Shown one piece after another: positions 12,087 to 60,718 of a DNA stretch of 64,000 nucleotides (within the stretch, counting starts at the first letter, position 1; every line of letters begins with the position of its first letter). A program made the position numbers and the translations under genes. The notes below the pieces were generated by a model. It worked only from the letters and a program-made list of their open reading frames with translations. It was not told the origin of the DNA and made no database searches. The stretch is from Escherichia phage phita32: sequence record PQ758395, one strand, 5' to 3'.

Positions 12087-15000
12087 ATGCTTCCAATCCC
12101 TTTGCTAAAACTTGGTCGTCATTTCCTCGATAAGAGGGGTGGAATTAAGGAACTTGCTGTTCTGTCATACCCAATAGACAACAGTGATGGTACAAGCAAC
12201 ACAGTATCCTATGTAAATAGCTTAGCTATACTTTTTGATGATGGTCAGCTTAATATTACTGGCTATAATAAGTTCGGAGAGTGCCGCACCGGGGATCGTA
12301 GCCCTATAAACTACCCGAGCGAAACAGCCTGGAATGTTGATCATGTGTGGAGAGCAGACCGTGCGTTTGTGATCCGGACTTTTGATAATCAGTTTTTCTA
12401 CATCGGTTGCACTGCAGGTCTTATCGGATCCACTGCGGCAGGCGGTAATGATGTTTGCGTAAACGAGTGGACACCTCTTCCAGAACAGATTGTTAAAGGA
12501 TTGCACCTTGACACTCATCCAGAGCGCCTTATTGAGGTGATGGGCGGTATTAACAACACTATCTGGGTTATTGCAGAGGCAGAAGGCACTGGCATACTTA
12601 ACCTATATGGATCTGGTAACAACACCTACGGATCTTTGCATGTAGATAAAAATCAGCATGCAACCCCTGTAAAGATTGGTGAGACATCGGAAAATCCTGA
12701 AACAGGACCTTGGAAAAACCCAAGCATCAACTGCGAGGTGCATGACAACTCTGTTATTTTCGGTGGTCCTAGAGGTTTCTGGATTGCTGGATACGACTTT
12801 CTGAGAAATAACAGTAGAAACGACCTTGTTTGGCCTCCTGTGCAGATTACTCGTAACGATTTGAGGGGAATTCCTGCAGATGAGGAGTGGAAAGGGTTTA
12901 TGTGTGGTCCTAACGGGGCAATAATTGCCACACAGAGGATGCATAGACCCGATGACCAGCAGCTTGTTAACGTATTCTACGGGCAAGACGTCTGGGGAGA
13001 TGACACATGGCGTTCCTTAAATATCACCTACACCCATGAGGTGATAATGGCTCGTGGATACGGCACAAGTGGCATTTTCTTCAATAATGGCACTAAACAG
13101 TATCGTGGATTCTCTCGCAACTTGTGTAATGATATTGGTGCACAATCTGCAAACAATAACCCTAGGGCTAATTTTATCCACTATCAGGCTCTTGCTACAG
13201 CTAAATATGTTGAGCAACGCCTGCCAGTTAGCTGGACAGAGAGTGTTTATTTCCAAGGCATCCACAGGGAAGGTTTCTTAGGAACCTTTACTGTTGTTAA
13301 TGGCAAACTTTGGTGGTCAGGCATCCCAAGGGGAAGTTTTGCAGGCTCTAACAACCTGTTTGGCGGCAGACTTAATAGTCAGGGGTTCACAGAGGTTCCT
13401 GAGAATTGGTATAAAAATGTCCCGGTAGACAGTTGGGGTGTTGATGATATTTTCGACGTTAACGGTGTTAGCAGCGTTAGCAATATTTACATTGGTGACA
13501 CGGTCAAGATGAAATTGAAGCCTCAGCCAGAGGGGGCTACGTTCATTATTGACAAGATTGAACTGGTAAATGCTGCAGGCACGGTTGTTACAGATGCAAA
13601 TTACCAATTCTCCACCAACTGGAACCACGGTGGGGCCAACGAAGTTGTTGTTACTCAGTATAACAGGAATGTTAACAGACGTGGCCTGTACTCTGTAAAA
13701 ATAACCTATCATGACAAGCATGGCACAGGAAGAACTCACACGACAAGGACTTTGAACTGGAACACCATAGTTCCTGCGTATCCTTCTGACGGTAAGTGGC
13801 ATACCGTTGGTAGAAACAAGCAGTTCCATGTTAACGATACTGTGTACTTCGGGCTGAATGGGACTCAGCCTGCGGTAGAAGGGGATACATCGTATATGGT
13901 CCGACTCCACAGAATGGATGCTGGATCAGTCACCTATGATGTTACCCAAGAGATTTATGATCAGAGACGAAATACCTACAACAACTTGGTGCAGACACAG
14001 GCCGTATGGGAGTTCAACCCTAACGGCAGAGGTGGTAAAATGTTGCAGGTTAACGAGCAAAACGGAACGTCGTTGACTGTCCACGAACACCCAGACCCTT
14101 GGCCTGATCCTGGAAAACCTCACCCTGGTGCTCGTACACTGAAAATTGTCAGCCATGATGTAGGATATTTCGGAATACGCTGGGAAGCTACAGTAAGATA
14201 TGCCGACGGGACAACAAACAACATAGGGATTACTCTTGGTGGCACTAGTGAGGATAACTCACTGAAAATTGCCTGCACTCCTAGAGGCATCTCTATTGAC
14301 AATATGGATGTTGTTCGCAACGGTTACGGCGATGTGAATGTCAAAGTTACTCTTGGCGAACATCTTGGTGGGGAAAGGATAATCATGTATGCCTTTGATC
14401 ATGATCCACGCACCAATGGAACTTATGCAAATCAGGCATGGAGTTACCTGATAAATGCACCTGAGCAGAATACTAAAGAGTTCTACTATGGTATGAAGCG
14501 GGATGTGTGCAAGAAAACAGGAACACATGACCGGATTGCTATCTGCGTTAAAGATGAGCGCACAGCTTGGGATGAACCTGTTAACAGATGGTTCATAGGT
14601 ATTCCTACCAGAAGTGATAAGTATGTCGCAGAATATATTGTATGCATGGGCGGTACCAACCTGAACATGTGTTGGAACGAGGATGCAAACAAATACTCTG
14701 ATTATGACTATATGAGGGATTACTCTTGTAATCAGTGGTTTAACCAATCAACAGGATACCCTCCACGTCAGGCGAGAGTAAACCCTGCAATCTTCACAGA
14801 TACGCAGGTTTTCTTGACAAAACAGGCCAACGAGGTTCAGACCTTCAAGAATAAATACGATCCTAACAAGTGGTTCTACAACTGTTACGGCGCATTTTTC
14901 TGGGGACCTGGTGAGTTACCTGGTGGAGGATCTTGCTTGAATGAGGCAACTTACGCCAGTGACTACATCATGGGGCAGGTCAAGAAGTATAAGATAATCC

Positions 15001-16403
15001 CAGGTCCTGAGACTCTGGGCAATGCCGTTGACCCTTATATCATCATGACTGCACTGAGATCAAACATGGACGGGACATCCATGTCTATGCAAATTCCGGT
15101 AACAAACGGGTACAAACGTGTTGTGATGATCATTAAGTGCGACTTAATAGGTAAACAAGTTCTTGCAGAAAACGGGACATCCACGCATCCTTTTGAGATT
15201 GCTCTGCACTATCAGTTTGCTGACTCGCCTTTTGCAGGTGATAAGAGAATATCTGATACAGATGCACAGCGTTGTAAGAAAGTATTGTTGGGTGCAGGTT
15301 GGTGGTGGTATGAGTTTGATTTAACAGACAAATTCACCGACACATCTAAAGTTATAACAGGACTTCGTCTAGACCTTGGCGAGAACATGCACAAAGCTGT
15401 TTGTGATGGCACCTATGGTGACCCTACAATATACCTAAAATATATTTCTTTTGAGCATCCGGAAGATGTTGTCTACGGTCCAAAACTGAGATTGTTTGGC
15501 AGTTGGATTGCAAAAGATAGGGTAGGCATGGGTAAGAAGGTGAGAGGGTTCTTGGTTGATGCAGGAACAGAAGACATGCTGGTTAATGCAGTATGGCCTG
15601 AATTACCTGGGACTCAGTGGAACAACTCAGCCAAATCTATAAACTGGTTTAACATTCATAGGGCCATGTGGACCACTAACTGCTACTTGTGGAGAGAGCT
15701 TAACGATCAGGCCTTTGGCTTCAGTGATGGCAGGAGGATGGCGATCATTTGCTGGACAACGCTGCAAAGATGCTATGACCATGACTACGAGATTGGTGGT
15801 AGGGCATGGAAAAATATCAGGGACAGAATCATAACCAATTTTGCAGACGATAACGGTGGTGGAGCACATAACTTTGGCACAAGCCGACTTATCCATTTGA
15901 ATGGATCCTCAGCCTACAAGAAAGAAGGTTACTCCGGGTCCATGATCGAGTGGGGTCTGGTGAAAGATGCTCGCGTATTGATGGGCCAGCAACTTGCTGC
16001 CGCAATAGGCCCCAGCGCAGTGCAGTCGGTTAAACCAGCGTGGTTCGATATTCCATTGTGGTCACCCGGAACACCGGGAACTGCTGCAATCAACCCCACC
16101 ACTGGGGATCTAGAAATCTCCTGGGAGGACTTGAAGCAGGTCGGTGGTTGGGACAAAACAGGGTATCAGGTTCAGTGGTGGAGGGCTGATGGATCTTTAG
16201 CCGCTGATGAGTTTGTTAAGGACAATTTCTACACTATGTCCTCTGCAAAAGCACAGCAATTATTTGGTCAGGCCACTCCGTCAACGATCACCATGTCTAT
16301 GTGCTGTAAAGACAACAGGACTGGAGCTTTGGGGCCAAGGGTTGCTAAGGTTTTCTCAGGTATTAAATGGAATCTCCCTGTCCAAAGTATTTCATGGAAG
16401 TAA
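12087..16403 (+). CDS. Large tail fibre / host-interaction protein (1438 aa)
   Basis: Long ORF with GGAG RBS in the fibre cluster; ends with a single TAA that is in frame with the downstream ORF. Confidence 0.45.
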   Translation: MLPIPLLKLGRHFLDKRGGIKELAVLSYPIDNSDGTSNTVSYVNSLAILFDDGQLNITGYNKFGECRTGDRSPINYPSETAWNVDHVWRADRAFVIRTFDNQFFYIGCTAGLIGSTAAGGNDVCVNEWTPLPEQIVKGLHLDTHPERLIEVMGGINNTIWVIAEAEGTGILNLYGSGNNTYGSLHVDKNQHATPVKIGETSENPETGPWKNPSINCEVHDNSVIFGGPRGFWIAGYDFLRNNSRNDLVWPPVQITRNDLRGIPADEEWKGFMCGPNGAIIATQRMHRPDDQQLVNVFYGQDVWGDDTWRSLNITYTHEVIMARGYGTSGIFFNNGTKQYRGFSRNLCNDIGAQSANNNPRANFIHYQALATAKYVEQRLPVSWTESVYFQGIHREGFLGTFTVVNGKLWWSGIPRGSFAGSNNLFGGRLNSQGFTEVPENWYKNVPVDSWGVDDIFDVNGVSSVSNIYIGDTVKMKLKPQPEGATFIIDKIELVNAAGTVVTDANYQFSTNWNHGGANEVVVTQYNRNVNRRGLYSVKITYHDKHGTGRTHTTRTLNWNTIVPAYPSDGKWHTVGRNKQFHVNDTVYFGLNGTQPAVEGDTSYMVRLHRMDAGSVTYDVTQEIYDQRRNTYNNLVQTQAVWEFNPNGRGGKMLQVNEQNGTSLTVHEHPDPWPDPGKPHPGARTLKIVSHDVGYFGIRWEATVRYADGTTNNIGITLGGTSEDNSLKIACTPRGISIDNMDVVRNGYGDVNVKVTLGEHLGGERIIMYAFDHDPRTNGTYANQAWSYLINAPEQNTKEFYYGMKRDVCKKTGTHDRIAICVKDERTAWDEPVNRWFIGIPTRSDKYVAEYIVCMGGTNLNMCWNEDANKYSDYDYMRDYSCNQWFNQSTGYPPRQARVNPAIFTDTQVFLTKQANEVQTFKNKYDPNKWFYNCYGAFFWGPGELPGGGSCLNEATYASDYIMGQVKKYKIIPGPETLGNAVDPYIIMTALRSNMDGTSMSMQIPVTNGYKRVVMIIKCDLIGKQVLAENGTSTHPFEIALHYQFADSPFAGDKRISDTDAQRCKKVLLGAGWWWYEFDLTDKFTDTSKVITGLRLDLGENMHKAVCDGTYGDPTIYLKYISFEHPEDVVYGPKLRLFGSWIAKDRVGMGKKVRGFLVDAGTEDMLVNAVWPELPGTQWNNSAKSINWFNIHRAMWTTNCYLWRELNDQAFGFSDGRRMAIICWTTLQRCYDHDYEIGGRAWKNIRDRIITNFADDNGGGAHNFGTSRLIHLNGSSAYKKEGYSGSMIEWGLVKDARVLMGQQLAAAIGPSAVQSVKPAWFDIPLWSPGTPGTAAINPTTGDLEISWEDLKQVGGWDKTGYQVQWWRADGSLAADEFVKDNFYTMSSAKAQQLFGQATPSTITMSMCCKDNRTGALGPRVAKVFSGIKWNLPVQSISWK

Positions 16404-16508
16404 ATAGGTGATAACAAGCTGCTGGTTACCCCTGCCTGTCAGTTCAACGCAACTCTTAACGTTGATCCTGCTGTTGCGGCAAACTCAGCTAAAGCTTCTG
16501 ACTTCTCT

Positions 16509-17723
16509 GTGTCTAACACTGCTATGGCAGATGTGAGGAAGATTGACACACTGAACGCCAGAATTACCTGTAAAAACACTTATGGCACATTCCAGATCAT
16601 CAACAACTTCACAGATGCTGATTCTAAGGTAGTGAGGACAGCAAGCCAGACTCTAAGTTTAGGAACTCTGGCCTATGCGGCTCTGATCACTGAACAGTCG
16701 GCAACACTCCAAGGAGGCGGTGTAGGCAAGTCCATTACAACACCTGTGTGGAAGCCAAATGAGTGGGTTGTGTTTGATTTGACTGTGGACTTCTCCAGCG
16801 ATAATAACTGGACATGGGTAAGGAATTGCTTGTCACAACTGATGGGTGGTCCAAGCTCCGTTAGTGATAGCCACGACTCCACTGACCCGAGTGTGTTCCA
16901 GGTAGGTAAAACTCACCCAGAGACTGGAGAAACGTTGCCTGACAGGAAGTATGCTTTGGTTTGCATCTCTTACGGGAAGGCAGATGTCACCTTCTCAGGG
17001 ACACACACTTATAACGGAACCTACGACTTCTCAAGGAAGTATAGTCTCAAAGCAGGGAACATTATAGACGAGGTTGGTGTGTTGTATAATCCAGGTAACG
17101 GCATAGGGATTGTGGGTGGTAAACTGCAGATGCAGGAACCTTCTATTACCCCTTCCAATGTATCCGGGATTAGAAAGACTTGGGAAAGTAGTAATACCAA
17201 CATTGCAACAGTGGATGCTACCACAGGGCTGGTAACATTTAAAGCTACTGGGAATGTCACCATAAAGTTTGTAGTTACGGATGATGCAGGCCGCAAAACG
17301 TCTTCAACATCTTTCACTGTCAAACAGATGGCACCTCAGTGGAGAATGTGGGTAGGCAGGGCAACAGACGGGGCATATCCAAACCCGGCAGGGACTTCAG
17401 GTATGAAGACTTTCTCTGCAAGCAGACCAATGGAGTATGGCAGCGGTCCTAAAGTTGGGCAGATGGTATACTTTGGTGCGTATATCCCTGAAATTATAGG
17501 GCTTCCTAGAAATCAGATTCAATTACTGTTTGGATCTGGCGTTGACGAGCTTGCTACTTTCGGGTATAGCGACAACATAGATGCTGCAAGAAGTTCCGGA
17601 TGGGTGGGGTTCAGACTACAGCTGGCGGTAGAAGGTAGGGTCATGGGGTTCGGATCCATAGGTGCCATGCTTCCTGGTGATCAGCAGTATGATCTTGAAG
17701 CCTACGCAACTTTCTCTCGTTAA
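16509..17723 (+). CDS. Ig-like (Big_2-type) domain protein (404 aa); possibly a C-terminal extension of the upstream gene
   Basis: Segment IRKTWESSNTNIATVDATTGLVTFKATGNVTIKFVVTDDAGRKTSSTSFTV resembles bacterial Ig-like domains. Same frame as 12087..16403, with an open frame from 16404; no convincing RBS before the GTG at 16509 or the ATG at 16524. Confidence 0.4.
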   Translation: MSNTAMADVRKIDTLNARITCKNTYGTFQIINNFTDADSKVVRTASQTLSLGTLAYAALITEQSATLQGGGVGKSITTPVWKPNEWVVFDLTVDFSSDNNWTWVRNCLSQLMGGPSSVSDSHDSTDPSVFQVGKTHPETGETLPDRKYALVCISYGKADVTFSGTHTYNGTYDFSRKYSLKAGNIIDEVGVLYNPGNGIGIVGGKLQMQEPSITPSNVSGIRKTWESSNTNIATVDATTGLVTFKATGNVTIKFVVTDDAGRKTSSTSFTVKQMAPQWRMWVGRATDGAYPNPAGTSGMKTFSASRPMEYGSGPKVGQMVYFGAYIPEIIGLPRNQIQLLFGSGVDELATFGYSDNIDAARSSGWVGFRLQLAVEGRVMGFGSIGAMLPGDQQYDLEAYATFSR

Positions 17724-17737
17724 CGGAGGGGGTAAAT

Positions 17738-17768
17738 AAAAAAGGGGGCCAAATGGCCCCTTTTTATA
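17738..17768. terminator. Bidirectional intrinsic terminator between convergent operons
   Basis: AAAAAGGGGGCC-AAAT-GGCCCCTTTTT: GC hairpin flanked by A-run and T-run, between the + gene ending 17723 and the - gene ending 17770. Confidence 0.65.
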
Positions 17769-17769
17769 A

Positions 17770-17970
17770 TCAGTAATATTCCCAACACGACCCGTCTTCA
17801 GACGGCTGGACACGCTTACCTTTGTGGTCAACGTAGATATAACCGCAACCTTCGCAGATAACAGGTGCCGCGTAACCTTCCTTCCACTGTTTCTCCGTGA
17901 TCAGTCCTTTCAAATCTCCGCAGTCACGACCAAACAACTCTTCAGAACAGTCTTTACAAAAATCAGCCAT
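17770..17970 (-). CDS. Small zinc-ribbon-like protein (66 aa)
   Basis: Four CxxC-type Cys pairs (CKDC..C..C..CEGC..C). Confidence 0.35.
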   Translation of the reverse strand: MADFCKDCSEELFGRDCGDLKGLITEKQWKEGYAAPVICEGCGYIYVDHKGKRVQPSEDGSCWEYY

Positions 17971-34071: not shown

Positions 34072-34409
34072 GTTTGTGGAGAAATATAGTTAACTACGTG
34101 TGCGGCAATCCAACTCCTGAAGAGAAGGATGTTGTGATTCACGATTTTACTAAAAGATCTCGTGAAAAAGATCTACTGCTAACAAAGGTGACTGATAAAG
34201 ATCCTGCAGTAGGGGACTGGGCAGGTTTTGCGTTCACATCGGACAAATACACCTTTAACAAAGGTGACTATCTTGTTGTGGATTTTAACGAAGACATCGA
34301 GGGTGCTGAACCTTACTATCAGACCCTTATCGTTGCAGGGTGTGTTAATCTCTCCGCAGGTATGCACAGTTTGATTCTTTTTGAGCTTGACTCTGAAGAC
34401 CTCCAGTAG
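34068..34409 (+). CDS. Hypothetical protein (113 aa)
   Basis: ORF, 4-nt overlap. Confidence 0.35.
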   Translation: MSLWRNIVNYVCGNPTPEEKDVVIHDFTKRSREKDLLLTKVTDKDPAVGDWAGFAFTSDKYTFNKGDYLVVDFNEDIEGAEPYYQTLIVAGCVNLSAGMHSLILFELDSEDLQ

Positions 34410-34466
34410 TAAGATGTGAGTCTAAAGGGGAGGCACCCTCCCCAAAAACTAAGGAAGCACTAAACG

Positions 34467-34769
34467 ATGAAACGTTATAAACCATACACTTTTGAAATCG
34501 ATTTCGAACTTGACGATATGTTTACTGTGGAAGCTCAGGCAGTTGTCCAGTTGCCAGACCCGGAGTGCCGTGATTCTGATGTTGACTATTATGGATTTAG
34601 GCAGATCACTGATGTGCATGTTTACCACAACGGCGAAGAGATTGACTTCCACCAACTGCCAAACGCTGTGCGCCACTCAATTTACAAACGTGCAGCCCGT
34701 GAACTAGAGTCCTATCTGGATGCAGCGACGACAGCAGCTGCATTTGCTGAAGAAGTGGGAGGTTTCTGA
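34467..34769 (+). CDS. Hypothetical protein (100 aa)
   Basis: ORF with RBS-like AGGAAG. Confidence 0.35.
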   Translation: MKRYKPYTFEIDFELDDMFTVEAQAVVQLPDPECRDSDVDYYGFRQITDVHVYHNGEEIDFHQLPNAVRHSIYKRAARELESYLDAATTAAAFAEEVGGF

Positions 34770-38601: not shown

Positions 38602-41031
38602 ATGAGTATGTGGTCTTTCGATCTGGAGGCCTCCGGGCTTTTGGAAGATCTAGATCTTTATTATCACTGCGGTCTGTTTAAAGAGCTGAATAAGAACCGT
38701 TTTATGCTGTTCCTTCCTCTAAATGACCGCACACACTACTCCAAGGAGGATATAGAGAAGGCCAAGAACTTTATTCTGGCAAAGAAAACTCTTTATAAAG
38801 ATTTTGAAGTCCGCATAGCAGATTTTTCGGAGTTGGAAGGTTGGCTTACAGGCAATTCCGACTGGTCACCAACAGCTTTGAACTGCCATAACTGCTACAG
38901 TTATGACTTTATGCTGATGGAGAGATTATCCGGTATTCATTTTGATATGTTCCGTGATCCTAAATGCATGGGGACTATCAACGACCACCAGGTTAATCTG
39001 TTTGATACGTTGGCGATGAGCCGAATCTTGTGGCCTGATCGCCCTTTACCAAAAGGTTGTCCGGACTCTGTATTCAACCCGGTTACTAAGAAAATGCAGC
39101 CTGTTGGTCCTCACGGCCTTATGGCATGGGGCTACGCCCTTGGTAACCAGAAAGTTCAAATTGATGACTGGCGCGATCTTCCGTTGTGGAAGTATGTGGA
39201 TCGTGTATTCGAGGACGTTATCATCCAGGAGCTGCTCTGGAAAGAGCTGGTAGCGGAATCAAAAGGTGTATTCTACGGCAAATCTGACATGCAGAACTTT
39301 ATGTATGATCCTGCCAAAGAGAAGCCGAAAGGGTTCAAGAAGATCACCTGGAAGAACGCATTACGTCGAGGCATGCTGCAGCACTTCCTGATGGAGCTGC
39401 AGGCCCGTCAGGGTGTATACTTCGACATAGATGGAGCTATTGCTTTACGTGACCGTTGCGATGCGTGGATGAAAGAAATCGCTGATCGTGTTGAACCACA
39501 ACTACCTTTAAAAGAGCTGTCAATGTCTCAGCGGCCCAAGTTCCCTGAAAAGCCGTTTAACCAAGACGGGACAATCTCTAATAATGGTTGGAAATGGTTA
39601 AAAGATAAGCTTGGCTATCCTGTAGACATGAGCGCTTTAGAGTTCAAAGCCCCGCCTAAGCGAGCATTTACCTCTACAGGGGATGTCAGCAAGATGGGGA
39701 TAAAATGGTGTGAAGAGATGGGCTGCAAAGACCCCGATAAGATGGCTGATTTCTTGAGAGGCTATATTAAGGGTACCTCCACACCACAACCTTTACCTAA
39801 AGAGCTAATGGATCAGGCAATAAGTGATCTGCAGCAGAAGCGAATGCCTGACTGCAAGATACCTATGAAAATCGGCAATCAGGACGACATCAAGCGATAC
39901 CTAATCAGTGCTGGTTGGCTCCCAACAATGTGGAGAACTAAAGATGTAACTAAAGACAGCAAGAAGAAAGCTTTACCTGATGCAGATGTTGATGCACGAG
40001 TATATGCATACATGGACGAGCTTTTAGAGTCAGAGTATTGTGACCTGATTATCAACTTCTGGAACAAAACTGATGCTAAGTTTCAGACAACCGTGCACAA
40101 GTTCCGAAGCTTTCCTAACTCCGAAAGGATTAAAAAGGAAGTGTTCGGGAAAATACGTAGAAAAGCCAGGGCACTTATTACTTCTCCGCAACTGAAAGAT
40201 ACGTTTGGACACCTATGCCCAAATCTTGAAAAATTGAACGGAGAGATGGCTAAAGATATCGTCTTGTGGTTATCATTGCGAAACCGCAGATCGGTCCTTG
40301 ATCCAATCAAGGAGGATAAGGTTGATACTGGTCTTCTTAATCACCCACGTTTGAAGATTGACCATAAGCTTCCTGCTAAAAGCTCTGGATTAACAAACAC
40401 TTCCAGACAGAAACACAGTATTTGTGCAAACATGCCTAAACCATCTCCTAAAGTGGTTATGGGTAAAGAGATGCGTAGTCTGTGGGGTGTTCCTCCAGGA
40501 TACTTTGAGATCGGTATTGACGGGTCCAACTTAGAGCAGCTTATCGGGGCTTGGGGTGCCTTTGAGTTCGACAACGGCTTGTATTATGATGTTGTAAGTA
40601 ACGGAGACGCACACCAAAACAATGCTGAGGCATATACAAAAGTAGCAGGCAGAGAGGTGTCCCGTAACGACGGTAAACCTATCACGTATGGGGTTATGTA
40701 CGGGGCACAAAAAGATAAAGTTGCAGATATGCTGGACATCTCTCCAGAGTTGGGACAAAGGGTAATCGATGCACTCTGGGATGCCAACCCAGGTCTTAAG
40801 GGGCGCAAAGAGGATCTGGAGAAATTCTGGGAAGCAACAGGTAAGAAGTTTATCTACTCTTTTGATGGTCATGCTATCTGGACCAGATCTAAACACTCTT
40901 TACTTAATGCATACCAACAAAATGGCGGTGCATCGTTGTGTGACTTAGTTGGAATACTCATGCACCACCAGATGGTGAAGCGTGGGTGGTACGATGAAGG
41001 TGTTCGTCGTATTATTTATTACCATAAATAA
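38602..41031 (+). CDS. DNA polymerase, family A (with 3'-5' exonuclease domain)
   Basis: N-terminal FDLEASGL (exo motif I); polymerase motif A region IGIDGSNLEQL; motif B region KPITYGVMYGAQ; AAGGAGA RBS. Confidence 0.65.
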   Translation: MSMWSFDLEASGLLEDLDLYYHCGLFKELNKNRFMLFLPLNDRTHYSKEDIEKAKNFILAKKTLYKDFEVRIADFSELEGWLTGNSDWSPTALNCHNCYSYDFMLMERLSGIHFDMFRDPKCMGTINDHQVNLFDTLAMSRILWPDRPLPKGCPDSVFNPVTKKMQPVGPHGLMAWGYALGNQKVQIDDWRDLPLWKYVDRVFEDVIIQELLWKELVAESKGVFYGKSDMQNFMYDPAKEKPKGFKKITWKNALRRGMLQHFLMELQARQGVYFDIDGAIALRDRCDAWMKEIADRVEPQLPLKELSMSQRPKFPEKPFNQDGTISNNGWKWLKDKLGYPVDMSALEFKAPPKRAFTSTGDVSKMGIKWCEEMGCKDPDKMADFLRGYIKGTSTPQPLPKELMDQAISDLQQKRMPDCKIPMKIGNQDDIKRYLISAGWLPTMWRTKDVTKDSKKKALPDADVDARVYAYMDELLESEYCDLIINFWNKTDAKFQTTVHKFRSFPNSERIKKEVFGKIRRKARALITSPQLKDTFGHLCPNLEKLNGEMAKDIVLWLSLRNRRSVLDPIKEDKVDTGLLNHPRLKIDHKLPAKSSGLTNTSRQKHSICANMPKPSPKVVMGKEMRSLWGVPPGYFEIGIDGSNLEQLIGAWGAFEFDNGLYYDVVSNGDAHQNNAEAYTKVAGREVSRNDGKPITYGVMYGAQKDKVADMLDISPELGQRVIDALWDANPGLKGRKEDLEKFWEATGKKFIYSFDGHAIWTRSKHSLLNAYQQNGGASLCDLVGILMHHQMVKRGWYDEGVRRIIYYHK

Positions 41032-41298
41032 CATTGTGGCTTCATAGAGTAATCTATGTCGAATAACCTCTTTAACTGCGGGAAGCCTAAACCTTATGGC
41101 AAGGTAATCCGCAACGAAGCGCTCAAAAGAGCGAACGCTCAGAGGCCATTCCGAAAGGAAGTAGACCAGCAAGTGCGGTCGAAATGGGAGGATTCCTGTG
41201 GTTGCTTATTATAGGAATATGAGATGGTCCGATCCTACGTGAAAACGTATGGCTATGCACGTAATGGTGCGGGGTAGCTTAACGACCTACCTGAACTA

Positions 41299-41655
41299 TT
41301 GGATGAGTACCAACTTCAAGTGCCTGACACACCGAAGTATAAGACTGTGTACACCTTCGACACAATTGAAGAACTGGAAGCATTTAAGGCAGAGCAGGAA
41401 GCCAAACTTCATGTGTTCGACGGTCATAAGTACAAAAAGGCACGCAAGGATGAGGACGGAAACGAAGTGGTTGACAGAGACGGAAACACGGTGTACGATC
41501 CTATCCTGAACGATGACGGAAAGCTTGAACTTATCTGGAGCCCTGTGGGTGAAATGGTGGTGCATTGCTTCTGGCAAGCTTCTAAAATGATGGGAGTCCC
41601 GTTCCAGATCACAGGTGAATACTTGTGTGGGGCTAATTGGGGTAGTTGCCATTGA
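41299..41655 (+). CDS. Hypothetical protein (118 aa)
   Basis: ORF (TTG start in track, no clear RBS); overlapped by alternative ORFs on both strands. Confidence 0.3.
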   Translation: MDEYQLQVPDTPKYKTVYTFDTIEELEAFKAEQEAKLHVFDGHKYKKARKDEDGNEVVDRDGNTVYDPILNDDGKLELIWSPVGEMVVHCFWQASKMMGVPFQITGEYLCGANWGSCH

Positions 41656-41666
41656 TCTGATAAGAG

Positions 41667-42323
41667 ATGTTTGCTATGGAAGAATGGAGAAAACTGGTTG
41701 GCAAGGAGGCCAACTATGAAGTTAGCAGCAAAGGAAGGATTAAAAGGCTGTCTTACCTGAGGAAGTACAGTAACCAAACAGGTAAAGTTACTTTCAAAGC
41801 TGTCCCTGACAGGATTTTAAAAGGTAGCGTAGACAGTAGCGGTTACATTCAAGTAAATGTGGATGGAAGATCGGAATTGCTTCACAGGTTAATTGCCGAG
41901 ACCTTTCTAGAGCCTCCTTCAAAAGAGCTTGTAGAGGAATGTAAGGCAGCAGGGCTGGACTATGTACCGATTAATCATAAAGACCATAACCGCCTAAACA
42001 ATGCTGCTGACAACCTTGAATGGGCCTCGCCTTCAAAAAATGCACAAGATGTGGACTACGATTACTGTAAAACAAGAGGTGAAAATTCATACTGTGCAAA
42101 ACTTAAAGAGCGAGATGTTGACGAAATATTAAAGCTTTCCAAAACAGGTATGTCGCAGCAAGCTATAGCAGATCTTTTCGGTGTTAATCAGATAACCATT
42201 TCCAATATCTTGACAGGAAGGAGTTGGGCATGGTACACTGGGATACCTAAAACCGCAAGGTGTAAAAACAAAAGGAAGAGATCCCCAAAAAGCATGTCCG
42301 AGCAAAATTTCTCGGTAAGCTGA
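41667..42323 (+). CDS. HNH homing endonuclease (NUMOD4 + HNH_3 + C-terminal HTH)
   Basis: EEWRKLVGKEANYEVSSKGRIKR (NUMOD4-like); INHKDHNRLNNAADNLEWASPSKN (HNH); C-terminal MSQQAIADLFGVNQITISNIL (HTH). Confidence 0.65.
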   Translation: MFAMEEWRKLVGKEANYEVSSKGRIKRLSYLRKYSNQTGKVTFKAVPDRILKGSVDSSGYIQVNVDGRSELLHRLIAETFLEPPSKELVEECKAAGLDYVPINHKDHNRLNNAADNLEWASPSKNAQDVDYDYCKTRGENSYCAKLKERDVDEILKLSKTGMSQQAIADLFGVNQITISNILTGRSWAWYTGIPKTARCKNKRKRSPKSMSEQNFSVS

Positions 42324-45509: not shown

Positions 45510-46780
45510 TGAGCGTTATTCAACAATTCGCTAACCCAATGAATCCGCGTGAAACTGTTTTACTGGCTCACGGCATGATTAAACGTGTTAGCATCAAGCC
45601 TATCAAAGGTGCTGATCCTACAACAGGTATTAAAACCACTGTGTGGCAAGGTAAGAAAATTGAATCCAGCCACACCATCTCTTTACTGATTTCTGAACTG
45701 GATTCCTCTGATAACCTGCTTCAAGGTGGTGAAGAAGTCTGGATCAGCATGGGTGATAAGCTGCTTAAACCAGGTCATCAAGACTCTGTCTCTGTTAAGA
45801 TTGATGACAAGTGGGAAACCGTAACGCCAGGATGGATCGTAAATATCCCTTTGAAGGCAAACGAGCATAACGGTAAGACCTATTACAAGGGCTCACTGGC
45901 TAAGATGGTTAAGCTGGGTGCAGGAGAGGCTCCAGCAGCGACTCAGCAGCAAAAACAGCAACAAGGTGCACAATCACAAGGCCAGAAGCAGAAACCTCAG
46001 CAGAATGCCAATCAGGACGTTTTACGCATCTATGGTGATGTGACTCAGATTGTTGGCAACGTGGTTACTGTTAATGACCACAAGATTGGCGAAGGTGCTA
46101 TGGTTGTCACTGATGAGCAGCTTAAAGATCTGGTGGTAGGTGGTCGTGTTGCAGCCATTGTTGACAAAGACACCGGAAACATTATCAGTGGTTTCAAAGC
46201 CTATCCTCCTAAGGCAGAGAACGGCACTCAAGGCTCCGGTGGCAAGCGTAAATCCTCTTACGACCCTATCGGTGTGGAAACGGGGCATAGCATCAATGCG
46301 TTGCAGATCATCCTGGATCGCGGGTTTAAGGTAGACGACCCACTGGGCGTGGCTAAAACACTGCACGTAGTCACCATTGAGCTTAAGAAAGAGTATGCTC
46401 AAGCCACCAACCGAACTGAAGATGAAGTAGGTGCCAGTGTCGGTAATGCGGTGTTGAACGCTTGTCGCCGTATTGACAAGAAAACGAAAGTTGATGATTT
46501 TGCAGCGGCAATTACTGCAGAAGCAAAAGATGTCTTGACTAATCTGGCTGAGCCGTTGTACGATTGGATCAAGAACGGTGCTGGGTCAACTGACCATCAA
46601 GAACCTCAGGCTGCCAAACAGGAAGCAGCTCCACAGCAAAACACTGTAGACGCTCCTCCTGTAAATGATGAGGAAGATGACCCAATGGATCAGAATCCGG
46701 CGCAGTATGACTTCTGTGATGACATACCTTTCGCTCCGGTAGGTTTGCAATATGGCAAAAGTAGAATCCACGCATTGTAA
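45509..46780 (+). CDS. Putative single-stranded DNA-binding protein (423 aa)
   Basis: AAGGAGA RBS; Gln-rich low-complexity linker ([20 protein letters not shown]); acidic C-terminal region ending ...YDFCDDIPF followed by a further 15 aa. Inference, not verified. Confidence 0.35.
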
Positions 46781-47375
46781 GAGGTGCATCAAGTGCGGGG
46801 AGGTGAAAGACCTCTCCGAGTTCTACAAACACCAAAAGATGTCTGACGGTCATCTTAATAAGTGCAAAGAGTGTTGCAAGAAGGCCAGTAGGGAGGCTGA
46901 CCAATTTTCCTACGACTCTTCAGAAAAAGGTGTAATACGCGTGCTGTACAAGGCTCAAAAGTGCAACAGCAAGCAAAGAGGTCACCCGCCTCCGACTTAC
47001 ACCAAAAAAGAGTTTAAGGAGTGGCTATACCTAAACGGTTACAAAGAGTTGTATGATCAATGGGTAGCCAGCGGATACGACAAAAGGAAAAAGCCTTCTT
47101 GTGACAGGATAGATGATTTCAAAGGGTACTCTTTTGATAATATCCGTTTAACGACTTGGGGAGAAAATAAAGACAAGCAGACAGAGGATATTCTGTTGCA
47201 TAGAAGCACCAGCGGTAGACGGTGTAAAAATGTAAGGAGGCTGGACATGAATGGCAACGTTCTTAAAGAATGGGTATCCCACAATTCTTGTAGAAGAGAA
47301 ACCGGAATATGTGTTGATTACTACATTCATGAAAAAATTCCAGCCCCGGATGGATACCTCTATGAATACTTTTAG
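46752..47375 (+). CDS. Zinc-finger His-Me/HNH-type endonuclease-like protein
   Basis: N-terminal C-x2-C...C-x2-CC cluster ([17 protein letters not shown]); overlaps the 3' end of the upstream gene by 29 nt. Confidence 0.4.
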
Positions 47376-47437: not shown

Positions 47438-47653
47438 ATGACATTAGAAGATATCATTGTTAAACCTGAGAACTATGACCAATACAACCTGTCAACTCAA
47501 TCTGTAGGCCTCGGATGCGCCACAGTCAGTGCATGGCTGGTTAACGGAAAAGAGCTTGACGAGTGCCTGGAAGCACACATGTCGGTGAATAAATTTCTTG
47601 ATGAAAATACCCACTGGCTGGAGGGTGCAGGAGTATATGCTTCATGGTTGTAG
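47438..47653 (+). CDS. Hypothetical protein (71 aa)
   Basis: AAGGAGA RBS. Confidence 0.4.
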   Translation: MTLEDIIVKPENYDQYNLSTQSVGLGCATVSAWLVNGKELDECLEAHMSVNKFLDENTHWLEGAGVYASWL

Positions 47654-47656
47654 AGT

Positions 47657-47854
47657 ATGGGATTCGACTACCAATCTGAAGAGGGGTGGTGGAGCTATTT
47701 AGCTATCTGCCCAGAGACGCTGCAATGCTTCATGAAATATTCTGAAGATTTGGAGTACCGGGCGGTGGTTGATAGTGCTATTGCCCGTTATAGCCGTAAA
47801 CCTTTTTCCCACGACATTAAAACTGTGGAAGAGTTTGTTGAAGTTTTCTGTTGA
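47657..47854 (+). CDS. Hypothetical protein (65 aa)
   Basis: ORF, co-oriented. Confidence 0.3.
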   Translation: MGFDYQSEEGWWSYLAICPETLQCFMKYSEDLEYRAVVDSAIARYSRKPFSHDIKTVEEFVEVFC

Positions 47855-51575: not shown

Positions 51576-51696
51576 GGCCCCTGTTGCCCCGGCTTGTTAT
51601 TATAGTATCACGCAGGACAAAGAAAGCAAGGATTTTTTGCATAAATTTTTAGACGATAATGATAACCGTTCTCATTCTATCTAGCGCCCATCCCCA

Positions 51697-56566: not shown

Positions 56567-56926
56567 ATGGAATTTATTATTCTGACTGTATTAGTTGCCT
56601 TGTTCAACGCCTGGATCGCTGGCAAGGTAGGCAGATCCGCTTTCTTATGGTTTATTATATCTATTTTCCTGGGAGTGGTTGCAACTATCATATTGGTTAT
56701 CCTTGCAATTGTTGACAAAGGTAATAATAGAAAGGGTAAAGTATTTTCCGACCTGTATGACGCACAAACGTTCGTCAACGCCTATTATGGTGATCTCCCG
56801 GTATCCCTACGCTGCAGCCTGGCACAACAGGTTTTTGATGAAGCTAAAACCAGAGATCAAGCCCATGAGATATGTTTAACTGAGGCGGATCGCCTATTTG
56901 AGAGGAATAGAAAATATGTGGGCTAA
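56567..56926 (+). CDS. Early membrane protein (about 119 aa)
   Basis: ATG after AAAGAGG RBS; two predicted transmembrane helices. Confidence 0.4.
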   Translation: MEFIILTVLVALFNAWIAGKVGRSAFLWFIISIFLGVVATIILVILAIVDKGNNRKGKVFSDLYDAQTFVNAYYGDLPVSLRCSLAQQVFDEAKTRDQAHEICLTEADRLFERNRKYVG

Positions 56927-57161
56927 CCGTTTAAATAACTCCGCGCTAATTAATCCCTTTAGTGAAGATTTGAAGCCAGCCGCCTGGCGTGATGGATTCA
57001 ATACCGAAGGATTTATTTTCAGGCCTGATCTTGAGGAATTTTATAACAATGGATCGAACAACGACAGAGATAATTTTTCTTGTGATGTGCGTAGCGATGG
57101 TACTCCTGGGGGCCATTGCAAACCACATCACTACTACCAGGGGGAAAGGGGGAGACGATGA
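56916..57161 (+). CDS. Early small protein (about 81 aa)
   Basis: ATG at 56916 after GAGAGGAA RBS; 11-nt overlap with the upstream gene. Confidence 0.35.
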   Translation: MWANRLNNSALINPFSEDLKPAAWRDGFNTEGFIFRPDLEEFYNNGSNNDRDNFSCDVRSDGTPGGHCKPHHYYQGERGRR

Positions 57162-57707: not shown

Positions 57708-58007
57708 ATGTTCATACCCGCCAATAATCTTTATTTCTTTGATGGTCAAATCGTAGACGGTGTGGAGGTGGAGATCACCGGGTGCCCTGGTGGTCAGGTT
57801 ATGACTTTCCGGAATAATGCCTTTGATGATTCTCATATCGTTATGAGAATGGAAGTTAGTAAGCTAGATGATAAGAAAACATTGATTGACTATTCCGTCA
57901 AAGATCATCCAGACTACCACATGATCTATGGTGATTTGTGCATTGTTGACCGTGACAAGGTGGGCGGCATTGTGATCGCTATTGTGAACGATGTTTTCTC
58001 TGTATAG
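57708..58007 (+). CDS. Early protein (about 99 aa)
   Basis: ATG at 57708 after AAGGAG RBS (the track GTG at 57687 contains the RBS). Confidence 0.4.
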   Translation: MFIPANNLYFFDGQIVDGVEVEITGCPGGQVMTFRNNAFDDSHIVMRMEVSKLDDKKTLIDYSVKDHPDYHMIYGDLCIVDRDKVGGIVIAIVNDVFSV

Positions 58008-58065
58008 TTCCGGTAAATGATGCAAAATAAGGCCCCTAGCAGGGCCTGCAGCGATATAATCACAT

Positions 58066-58099
58066 AAAGGCCATGCAACCGCATGGCCTTTATTATTTT
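58066..58099 (+). terminator. Intrinsic terminator (AAAGGCCATGC-AACC-GCATGGCCTTT + T-run)
   Basis: 11-bp stem followed by ATTATTTT; preceded by a second hairpin AGGCCCCTAGCAGGGCCT at about 58030. Confidence 0.6.
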
Positions 58100-58148
58100 G
58101 GCGTTACAGCGGCCCCCAAGGTGCTTAAAAAATTTTTTAAAGAAGTAC

Positions 58149-58176
58149 TTGCATCAAGCCCTACAATATGGATAAT
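58149..58176 (+). promoter_or_regulatory. Sigma70-like promoter (TTGCAT-N16-GATAAT) with leader hairpin GGGGG-GCGG-CCCCC
   Basis: Paralogous to the promoter at 57333. Confidence 0.5.
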
Positions 58177-58232
58177 AGGACGTGTCGGGGGGCGGCCCCC
58201 AATCATTAACCGGATAGATAGGAGTTAAAATC

Positions 58233-58517
58233 ATGGCTATTGTTACCGTTGGCGATGTAGTAGAAATGGAAGCAAAATACTTAAAAGCGGGTATGCATAT
58301 CCTACGGAATGATCAAGAGTTACTATTAACGATGGTCGACTATAATCCCGGCCAGGATTATCCAAGCATCGACTACTTTTTTGAGTATGTTGATGAAGAG
58401 TTGAAAGAGGATGAGGCCTATTGCGGTGAGTTCTGCAACTTCTTTTGTCCTGATGAGGTTGTAAAGGTTATTTATCAACCTGGCGTAGCTTTCCCGCTGC
58501 ACGCTATCAATAAATAA
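58233..58517 (+). CDS. Early protein (94 aa)
   Basis: AGGAG RBS; followed by a GGGGCC-GAAAA-GGCCCC hairpin. Confidence 0.45.
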   Translation: MAIVTVGDVVEMEAKYLKAGMHILRNDQELLLTMVDYNPGQDYPSIDYFFEYVDEELKEDEAYCGEFCNFFCPDEVVKVIYQPGVAFPLHAINK

Positions 58518-60522: not shown

Positions 60523-60718
60523 GTGCGATAATGACCACTGATGAAGCTGTAAAAGTGTTGGCGGTATTGAGATAACATAATCAGACAAAAGTTATAAACG
60601 ATCCTGATTATGTTGACTCAAAGCGTGAAGATGAGACATTGACCGCAATAGGGATTATTCAAGAATTGCTAAAGCGCATGACAGAGAAAAACCGACCTGA
60701 CTACATAGGGGGTAAAAT

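Follow-up and report, generated by a model that had tools for sequence, protein, structure and literature searches.

The product of a well-known Vequintavirus gene is named lateral tail fiber protein with intimin domain (bas48_0041 / bas54_0041, PHROG 15684). Its uninterrupted orthologues are single open reading frames (ORFs) of 1875 to 1878 aa, annotated as one CDS of 5628 to 5637 nt in Murica, AlexBoehm, MaxBurger, and JohannBauhin. Three large lateral tail fiber (LTF) genes show allelic variation (BASEL paper, PMC8594841). In a HIDEN-SEQ preprint, bas54_0041 was hit by transposon insertions at 281 of 336 TA sites and scored 'Non-essential' on K-12, and insertion mutants of this gene were depleted on a clinical isolate, with a log2FC of -2.23 and an adjusted p of <1e-5 (10.1101/2025.11.20.689424). 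Disrupted alleles of the same fiber gene, each read as two or three ORFs, are found in APECc02 (APCEc02_193-195), where the gene has lost approximately 3 kb and changes frame, in a Logan contig from SRR27718206, where it is broken by a +1 G in a G-run, and in vB_Eco_Alma (PHAGEALMA_092/093), where it is frameshifted near the N terminus. These alleles fit with the fiber gene being dispensable on laboratory hosts.

Two more distant systems provide a useful comparison. In the conditional-lethal amber and ochre tail fiber alleles of T4, a one-base change from a sense codon to a stop truncates a fiber protein, and such nonsense alleles give full-length protein again only after reversion or with a suppressor tRNA. 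In Qbeta, the A1 protein arises when ribosomes read through the UGA of the coat gene into an in-frame functional domain; this leaky UGA is conserved, and both products are needed.

We analyzed a stretch of 64,000 nucleotides of Escherichia phage phita32 (record PQ758395), referred to here as the window, which comes from a Vequintavirus (rV5-like myophage). An earlier note, made from the letters of the DNA alone, had drawn attention to a 1438-aa tail protein ORF and a downstream Ig-like ORF separated by one in-frame stop codon. At a probability of approximately 0.68, we consider that a C-to-T nonsense change split one 1878-residue lateral tail fiber gene, leaving a truncated, recent, and tolerated allele.

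One fiber gene read as two ORFs

The 1438-aa ORF occupies positions 12087-16403 of the plus strand, from an ATG start to a TAA stop at 16401-16403. Its frame resumes immediately after the stop with ATA GGT GAT AAC and is open for 439 sense codons until a second stop at 17721-17723. The Ig-like ORF was called mechanically as 404 aa from a GTG (16509-17723, plus strand); this GTG lies exactly 35 codons past the TAA, and an alternative ATG at 16524 lies 5 codons beyond the GTG. The coordinates thus bear out the arrangement given in the earlier note, an in-frame TAA followed by 35 sense codons and then the Ig-like ORF. Chance continuity of the frame, which the note had allowed for, does not account for it; judged from the gene's two other frames, an open stretch of 35 codons arises by chance with a P of 0.03 to 0.17, and one of 439 codons with a P of <=2e-10. 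The two ORFs are continuous because, as their homology demonstrates, both are halves of one gene, the Vequintavirus lateral tail fiber gene of 1878 codons. Of the 1878 positions in the PHROG 15684 profile, 1 to 1438 are matched by the first ORF (12087-16400, plus strand; E = 0) and 1440 to 1878 by the downstream piece (E 4e-292), which comprises orphaned codons and the native stop (16404-17723, plus strand), in frame and intact but without a translation start of its own. When CarlMeissner QXV76607.1 was used as the tblastn query, residues 1 to 1878 were covered in one frame with one stop at 97% amino acid identity, and the window gene, at 5637 nt, is the same length as CarlMeissner bas48_0041 and collinear with it, with 0 indels. 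The MaxBurger protein bas54_0041 (QXV82561.1) is 98.7% identical across the junction.

The locus is also the same. Gene order around the tail fiber genes is shared with CarlMeissner, AlexBoehm, and the Logan contig, and as in CarlMeissner, MaxBurger, and Murica (FDG88_gp026), the gene lies between the glycosidase LTF gene and convergent small genes. A GC-rich hairpin terminator (17745-17760, minus strand) separates it from those convergent genes, and terminators are annotated at the equivalent place in Murica and Alma. The fiber gene is the last in its operon, so no downstream gene on the same strand is exposed to a polar effect. The junction is spanned by one feature in every annotated record listed, and a two-gene organization was absent from all uninterrupted orthologues examined; the comparison with orthologues that the earlier note had proposed as a check therefore finds the relatives fused, with one ORF across the junction. 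A homologue search with the 439-aa piece gave four proteins, no full-length orthologue among them, and yielded junction-spanning Logan proteins and APECc02. The single uninterrupted ORF of 1875 to 1878 codons that characterizes the PHROG 15684 family is broken here by a TAA at codon 1439, and the window therefore carries the family gene in broken form.

Codon 1439 and the C terminus beyond it

Codon 1439 is the glutamine codon CAA in all 17 of the relatives compared (12 fetched loci and 5 metagenome contigs). A 51-mer with CAA at this position matches 111 phage records and the corresponding TAA 51-mer matches 0, and a TAA 25-mer had no match in IMG/VR, JGI metagenomes, or GTDB genomes. Exact matches to the 1438-aa product and to the 581-aa protein beside it were likewise sought among public contigs, and there were none. 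Two Logan proteins whose tip allele is closely related have the sequence ...SWKQIGDN... through the junction, and the flanks of position 16401 are otherwise perfectly conserved among relatives. Judged from these alignments, Gln1439 was converted to an ochre codon (16401-16403, plus strand) by a single C-to-T transition at 16401 that is private to this sequence. Among the explanations offered in the earlier note, that of a recent nonsense mutation splitting a gene of roughly 1880 aa agrees with all of this: orthologues of 1875 to 1878 aa, CAA in all examined relatives, and a private TAA. The lesion is nothing unusual: it either truncates or knocks out the gene, or is a base-call error, and it is no case of programmed read-through. 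It differs from those of APECc02, the Logan contig, and Alma, which are either a large deletion with a frame change or single-base indels elsewhere in the gene, in being a clean base substitution, after which the two halves still share a frame. It resembles the T4 alleles in kind, but there is no sign here of selection as a conditional-lethal mutant; the fiber gene is non-essential on K-12, and therefore no suppressor host is needed.

The DNA 3' of the stop still appears to be constrained as coding sequence. Compared to relatives, dN/dS is 0.02 to 0.15 downstream of the stop and 0.06 upstream, with no indels, further stops, or frameshifts. With the frame intact and downstream dN/dS low, the change appears to be evolutionarily recent.

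The part of the gene beyond the stop encodes a Big_2 (intimin-like Ig) domain at 17127-17285 of the plus strand (residues 242-294 of the 439-aa piece; Pfam PF02368, E 3.9e-9). Searching PDB sequences with the C-terminal piece gave weak matches to the intimin Ig domains 1e5u and 1f00 only. For the N-terminal 1438 aa, the PDB sequence search returned no match and the Pfam search no domain. An AlphaFold2 model of the 439-aa piece, built on a shallow alignment, was unusable (mean pLDDT 40, pTM 0.30). The gene ends in an allelically variable tip of approximately residues 1701-1878 (17187-17720, plus strand), marked by a drop in amino acid identity to four aligned GenBank relatives from 98 to 100% down to 69 to 78% over the last ~180 residues; taken whole, the 439-aa piece matches a Logan protein at 95% identity. 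Both this tip and the Big_2 domain are placed as they are in the Vequintavirus relatives. This tip is likely to be the receptor-contacting end of the fiber, which the truncation removes.

If the TAA is real, ribosomes would stop at the UAA and release a fragment with a predicted mass of ~161 kDa, in which the N-terminal region and the bulk of the shaft are retained but the last 439 residues, including the Big_2 domain and the tip, are missing. The 1.3 kb past the stop has no ribosome-binding site or promoter and therefore would be essentially untranslated, save for trace near-cognate read-through. The phage would be expected to be viable, as this fiber is one of several and its orthologue is dispensable on E. 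coli K-12; since bas54_0041 tolerates insertions on that host, a truncated allele can survive. The expected cost, on hosts where the fiber matters, would be a drop in fitness or a restricted range.

Private stops in the window and competing explanations

The stop at 16401 has company. Four more private in-frame stops lie in the window, at 47651, 51682, 56924, and 60573, compared to 0 across the same 42 ORFs in three control genomes. The five comprise 3 TAA, 2 TAG, and 0 TGA; the ratio of private nonsense to private missense changes in the window is 5:86; and one of the five trims just 4 residues from its product. Instead of standing alone, the fiber stop may reflect something genome-wide, such as mutagenesis, relaxed selection, suppression, or the quality of the data. 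This excess of private stops is the one odd feature of the window.

The alternative that fares best, and one that we consider unlikely, is an error of sequencing, assembly, or consensus calling, in which case the true codon at 16401 is CAA and a normal 1878-aa fiber is made. A single changed base, unique among >110 relatives and set in such conserved flanks, is what an error would produce, and error-like gene splits exist in the public records of this phage group, many of them in Alma. Against it, no frameshift was found in any of ~100 mapped CDS, and several window proteins totaling 1174 aa are 100% identical to those of CarlMeissner; by a rough estimate, five stops would be accompanied by ~110 random errors and thus by ~4 to 5 missense changes within these identical proteins. 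That all five stops stem from uniform random noise in the sequencing was rejected on the basis of this identity and the lack of indels. The contexts of the five stops, compared by eye for nanopore methylation-motif miscalls, have no motif in common, and none of them falls within a GATC or CCWGG site. Finally, conserved structural and replication genes are free of the five stops, and of the orthologues of stop-hit genes that could be looked up, three are non-essential in Bas54 (10.1101/2025.11.20.689424); this distribution looks like filtering by selection.

It is improbable that an ochre suppressor, supplied by the propagation host or by a mutated phage tRNA, decodes UAA and UAG, so that full-length fiber is made and the stops drift like missense changes. 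The presence of five private stops of the TAA and TAG types, none of them TGA, when three control genomes have none, is in keeping with suppression, as is the 5:86 ratio, which is near the ~5 to 6% expected without selection against stops (a rough figure). The absence of TGA from five stops is not significant (P ~0.17, a rough estimate), one stop costs only 4 residues, and most of the stop-hit genes are dispensable. No tRNA gene, suppressors included, was found in the window or in the matching stretch of CarlMeissner. Suppressor tRNAs are rare in natural isolates. The tRNA list of rV5 includes tRNA-Tyr(GUA) and tRNA-Ser(UGA) (PMC3606486), each of which needs a single anticodon change to become a suppressor; in this phage such genes would lie outside the window.

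A still smaller chance attaches to there being two genes, with an Ig-like protein started from a CTG at 16419, the GTG at 16509, or the ATG at 16524. We calculated the strength of Shine-Dalgarno sequences as the energy of the duplex that the 20 nt before each start form with the 3' tail of the 16S rRNA. The values were -0.1 kcal/mol for GTG 16509 and -1.6 kcal/mol for ATG 16524, compared to a median of -7.75 kcal/mol for 92 gene starts in the window, of which 98 to 99% are stronger than these two; the lack of a Shine-Dalgarno sequence before either codon, reported in the earlier note, holds when measured in this way. No promoter-like site was found on the plus strand within 15900-17900. The best case for a separate start is the heptamer AGGTGAT directly after the stop (16405-16411, plus strand), which has an anti-Shine-Dalgarno duplex of -6.7 kcal/mol; as possible starts it has just the CTG codons that come after it (16419 and 16422), the first of them 7 nt on. 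In all relatives, however, AGGTGAT is ordinary coding sequence (K-Q-I-G-D-N), and together with the 35 'spacer' codons it is conserved within one ORF; its resemblance to a Shine-Dalgarno sequence is coincidental. PHROG 215 ('structural protein with Ig domain', 491 positions) is a related stand-alone C-terminal module in other phages, and in APECc02 annotators began a 396-aa CDS at the equivalent of ATG 16524, but that call annotates a degenerate allele and is no evidence that it is expressed. The earlier note's suggestion of two genes with a noncanonical start thus finds conserved coding sequence in place of a spacer, no ribosome-binding site, no promoter, and fused orthologues.

Programmed read-through giving a minor, C-terminally extended fiber, also raised in the earlier note, is the least credible reading: the extension keeps the frame and remains cleanly coding, with a stop followed by an in-frame functional domain as in Qbeta A1, but here the stop is a private UAA inside a normally continuous ORF and is absent from every relative examined, where a programmed signal would be conserved, the 'extension' is the normal C terminus of the gene, and the 106 nt after the stop fold no better than shuffled sequences (-26 kcal/mol versus a mean of -23.7, z -0.65), with no read-through-stimulating structure found. 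The context of the stop is UAA-A, and UAA, which is read by both RF1 and RF2, leaks less than any other stop codon in E. coli.

Consequences for annotation and for the fiber

The preferred reading, a nonsense change in one fiber gene, bears on how the locus should be recorded. The two ORFs are best annotated as one interrupted gene (a pseudogene or truncated allele), and neither as a tail protein with a separate Ig-like protein nor as a recoding event. Of its several lateral fibers, the phage probably has one that lacks the variable distal end. Loss of this tip could reduce host range or fitness where the fiber counts, as seen for bas54_0041 on the clinical isolate, and such a loss of host range would be relevant if the phage were considered for typing or therapy. 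The allele adds to the evidence that propagation on laboratory hosts readily leads to loss of this lateral fiber.

The interrupted lateral tail-fibre gene

The window belongs to a Vequintavirus, an rV5-like myophage of E. coli, for which the closest GenBank phage is vB_Eco_Alma (approximately 96% identity over 12 kb), with most relatives at 94-95%. The N-terminal part of the tail-fibre gene is a plus-strand ORF (12087..16403) that starts with ATG, encodes 1438 aa and ends with a TAA at 16401-16403. Beyond it the frame stays open (ATA GGT GAT AAC AAG CTG CTG ...) for 439 sense codons, up to the next stop at 17721-17723. The ORF called mechanically within this stretch, the plus-strand Ig-like ORF of 404 aa, starts at GTG 16509, and the TAA is followed by exactly 35 codons in the same frame before it, as the earlier note had described.

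Well-annotated relatives carry this locus as one fused CDS. It is 5637 nt in CarlMeissner (bas48_0041, "lateral tail fiber protein with intimin domain") and Murica (FDG88_gp026), 5628 nt in AlexBoehm (bas56_0040), and also single in MaxBurger (bas54_0041) and JohannBauhin (bas53_0040). When 311 nt with the junction at their centre were used as a query, every annotated record among the matches listed had one feature under the match. The window gene is 5637 nt long, aligns to that of CarlMeissner without an indel and shares 97% protein identity with it. On the 1878-position profile phrog_15684, the first ORF covers positions 1-1438 and the downstream piece 1440-1878, so that only the position of the stop codon is missing.

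The codon at the TAA site was CAA (Gln) in all 12 loci fetched from GenBank phages, IMG/VR and a set related to Logan, a contig and protein collection, and in 5 of 5 metagenome contigs fetched. A 51-nt megablast query, built such that any 28-nt seed spans the variable base, matched 111 phage records when it carried C and none when it carried T. The TAA-bearing 25-mer had no exact match in IMG/VR, JGI metagenomes or GTDB species genomes, and two Logan proteins whose tip allele is closely related have ...SVSWKQIGDN... at the junction. Since the relatives all have CAA and the TAA version was not found in these searches, the split is, judged from the sequence comparisons, a single C-to-T transition private to the window. 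One suggestion of the earlier note, that a recent nonsense mutation split a single gene of roughly 1880 aa, is thus supported. Its "recent" also agrees with the state of the downstream part, which carries no second stop and no frameshift within the fibre gene. Against CarlMeissner and ECML-10, pairwise dN/dS was 0.02-0.07 over codons 1440-1700 and reached 0.15 in the variable tip, compared to 0.06 upstream. The low values and intact frame suggest that the orphaned part was under coding evolution until very recently.

Alternative readings of the split

The stop may instead be a sequencing error at the single base 16401, although no frameshifts were found among the approximately 100 CDS mapped in the window and several window proteins are 100% identical to those of CarlMeissner.

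The earlier note had also proposed two genes, the second with a non-canonical start. Shine-Dalgarno strength was taken as the best duplex of the 20 nt upstream with the 3' tail of 16S rRNA. The values for GTG 16509 and the alternative ATG 16524, five codons beyond it, were -0.1 and -1.6 kcal/mol, compared to a median of -7.75 kcal/mol for 92 real gene starts in the window, and both are weaker than 98-99% of those starts. The lack of a Shine-Dalgarno sequence noted earlier for these codons was therefore confirmed. No promoter-like site was found on the plus strand in 15900-17900. Directly 3' of the new stop, AGGTGAT (16405-16411, plus strand) is a good Shine-Dalgarno-like match (-6.7 kcal/mol). 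Only CTG codons follow it, without a canonical start, and it is plain, conserved coding sequence in all relatives. Trace re-initiation there could in principle occur, but with no Shine-Dalgarno sequence at either start and a single CDS in the relatives, the downstream piece is unlikely to be an independently initiated second gene.

Nor do the data support the remaining proposal, programmed read-through at the TAA, which needs a conserved stop that no relative has; the stop is UAA, and the 106 nt downstream fold no better than shuffled sequences (z = -0.65). Near-cognate read-through at trace levels would place mostly Gln, Tyr or Lys at the stop, so that a few chains of wild-type sequence could still be made. 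Chance in-frame continuity, which the earlier note had allowed for, can be set aside because 439 open codons have P <= 2e-10 in the two non-coding frames of the fibre gene, where a run of 35 would be unremarkable (P = 0.03-0.17). The split is best read as a known gene with either an ordinary nonsense allele or a miscalled base, and as neither a recoding signal nor a gene pair.

Predicted effect of truncation and tolerance of fibre loss

The last ~180 residues form the region that varies between alleles, and identity to relatives drops there from 98-100% to 69-78%. According to the BASEL paper (PMC8594841), three large lateral tail-fibre genes of the Vequintavirinae are allelically variable, and their products may form the distal ends that touch the host. 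Truncation at residue 1438 would take away this variable tip and a Big_2 Ig-like domain (residues 242-294 of the downstream piece, E = 3.9e-9), leaving an N-terminal fragment of ~161 kDa in place of a ~208-kDa protein, as computed. A PDB search gave weak matches to intimin Ig domains for the downstream piece, whereas the N-terminal part had no relative of solved structure; the predicted model of the C-terminal piece was unusable (pLDDT 40).

The direct orthologue bas54_0041, 98.7% identical across the junction, was classed "Non-essential" by transposon sequencing on E. coli K-12, with insertions at 281 of 336 TA sites, and is needed neither for K-12 infection nor for forming infective virions (HIDEN-SEQ, bioRxiv 10.1101/2025.11.20.689424). 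Its insertion mutants were depleted on a clinical isolate (log2FC -2.23, adjusted p < 1e-5; same source). The sheet reporting this depletion (Extended Data Table 8, "Data S6") is titled resampling_K-12_vs_CFE303, while both the command line and the name of the experimental file give "311", which makes the host ambiguous between CFE303 and CFE311. Together, dispensability on K-12 and depletion on a clinical isolate suggest a conditionally useful fibre whose loss is tolerated on laboratory hosts, and by this analysis the phage could carry the truncated allele.

Unrelated lesions also break the fibre gene in other sequenced phages. In APECc02 (KR698074.1, 3666-6338) the allele is ~3 kb shorter and changes frame, and a 396-aa CDS was annotated there from the ATG that corresponds to window 16524. 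In a Logan SRR27718206 contig (5947-11584), a G-run near window 16142 is longer by one G. In Alma (OV101294.1, 12380-18015) the frame shifts close to the N-terminus; this record, in which rIIB, helicase, DNA polymerase and further tail-fibre genes are split as well, is probably error-prone, the split genes suggesting many indel errors.

Other differences and four further private stops

The DNA polymerase gene, uninterrupted in CarlMeissner (925 aa), is interrupted in the window (38602-42323). Exon 1 lies in an 809-aa ORF (38602..41031), followed by a group I intron (41016-41251; Rfam RF00028, 63.1 bits, E = 1.2e-13), the C-terminal ~117 aa within an ORF at 41299..41655, and a 218-aa ORF (41667..42323) that, judged by eye alone, resembles an HNH-type homing endonuclease. 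A 207-aa ORF (46752-47375) has no counterpart at the CarlMeissner position. It does occur in I29, annotated as "putative endonuclease" (I29_192), in slur16 as "endonuclease VII" and in Bas54 as "putative homing endonuclease" (bas54_0088), which suggests a patchily distributed mobile endonuclease gene. By CDS mapping, the CarlMeissner N6-adenine methyltransferase bas48_0070 (site at window ~34406-34467) and the 116-aa bas48_0120 (site at window ~58001-58233) have no window counterparts.

Mapping all CarlMeissner CDS onto the window revealed four in-frame stops besides the fibre TAA, and at each of them all the relatives sampled (3-5) have a sense codon. They are, with the class of the Bas54 orthologue in brackets where there is one, GAG to TAG at 47651-47653 in a 138-aa ORF (47438-47854; bas54_0089, non-essential), CAG to TAG at 51682-51684 in a 92-aa ORF from 51523 (bas54_0102, "strong fitness defect" when disrupted), CAA to TAA at 56924-56926 in a "putative holin" (56567-56938; bas54_0115, non-essential), which loses 4 residues, and TAT to TAA at 60573-60575, the 15th codon in a 63-aa ORF from 60531. 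No stops were found in the same 42 ORFs of three control genomes of similar divergence (I29, slur16 and RudolfGeigy). Where relatives agree, 228 of the private changes are synonymous, 86 missense and 5 nonsense; the last two counts indicate that in this lineage a stop has been about as acceptable as a missense change. Data problems are a possible source of the excess, as is recent relaxed selection or mutagenesis. Informational suppression is also possible: the rV5 tRNA set has Tyr and Ser species one anticodon change from suppressors (PMC3606486), and the tRNA genes are located outside the window. This excess of private stops is the sole thread that merits follow-up.
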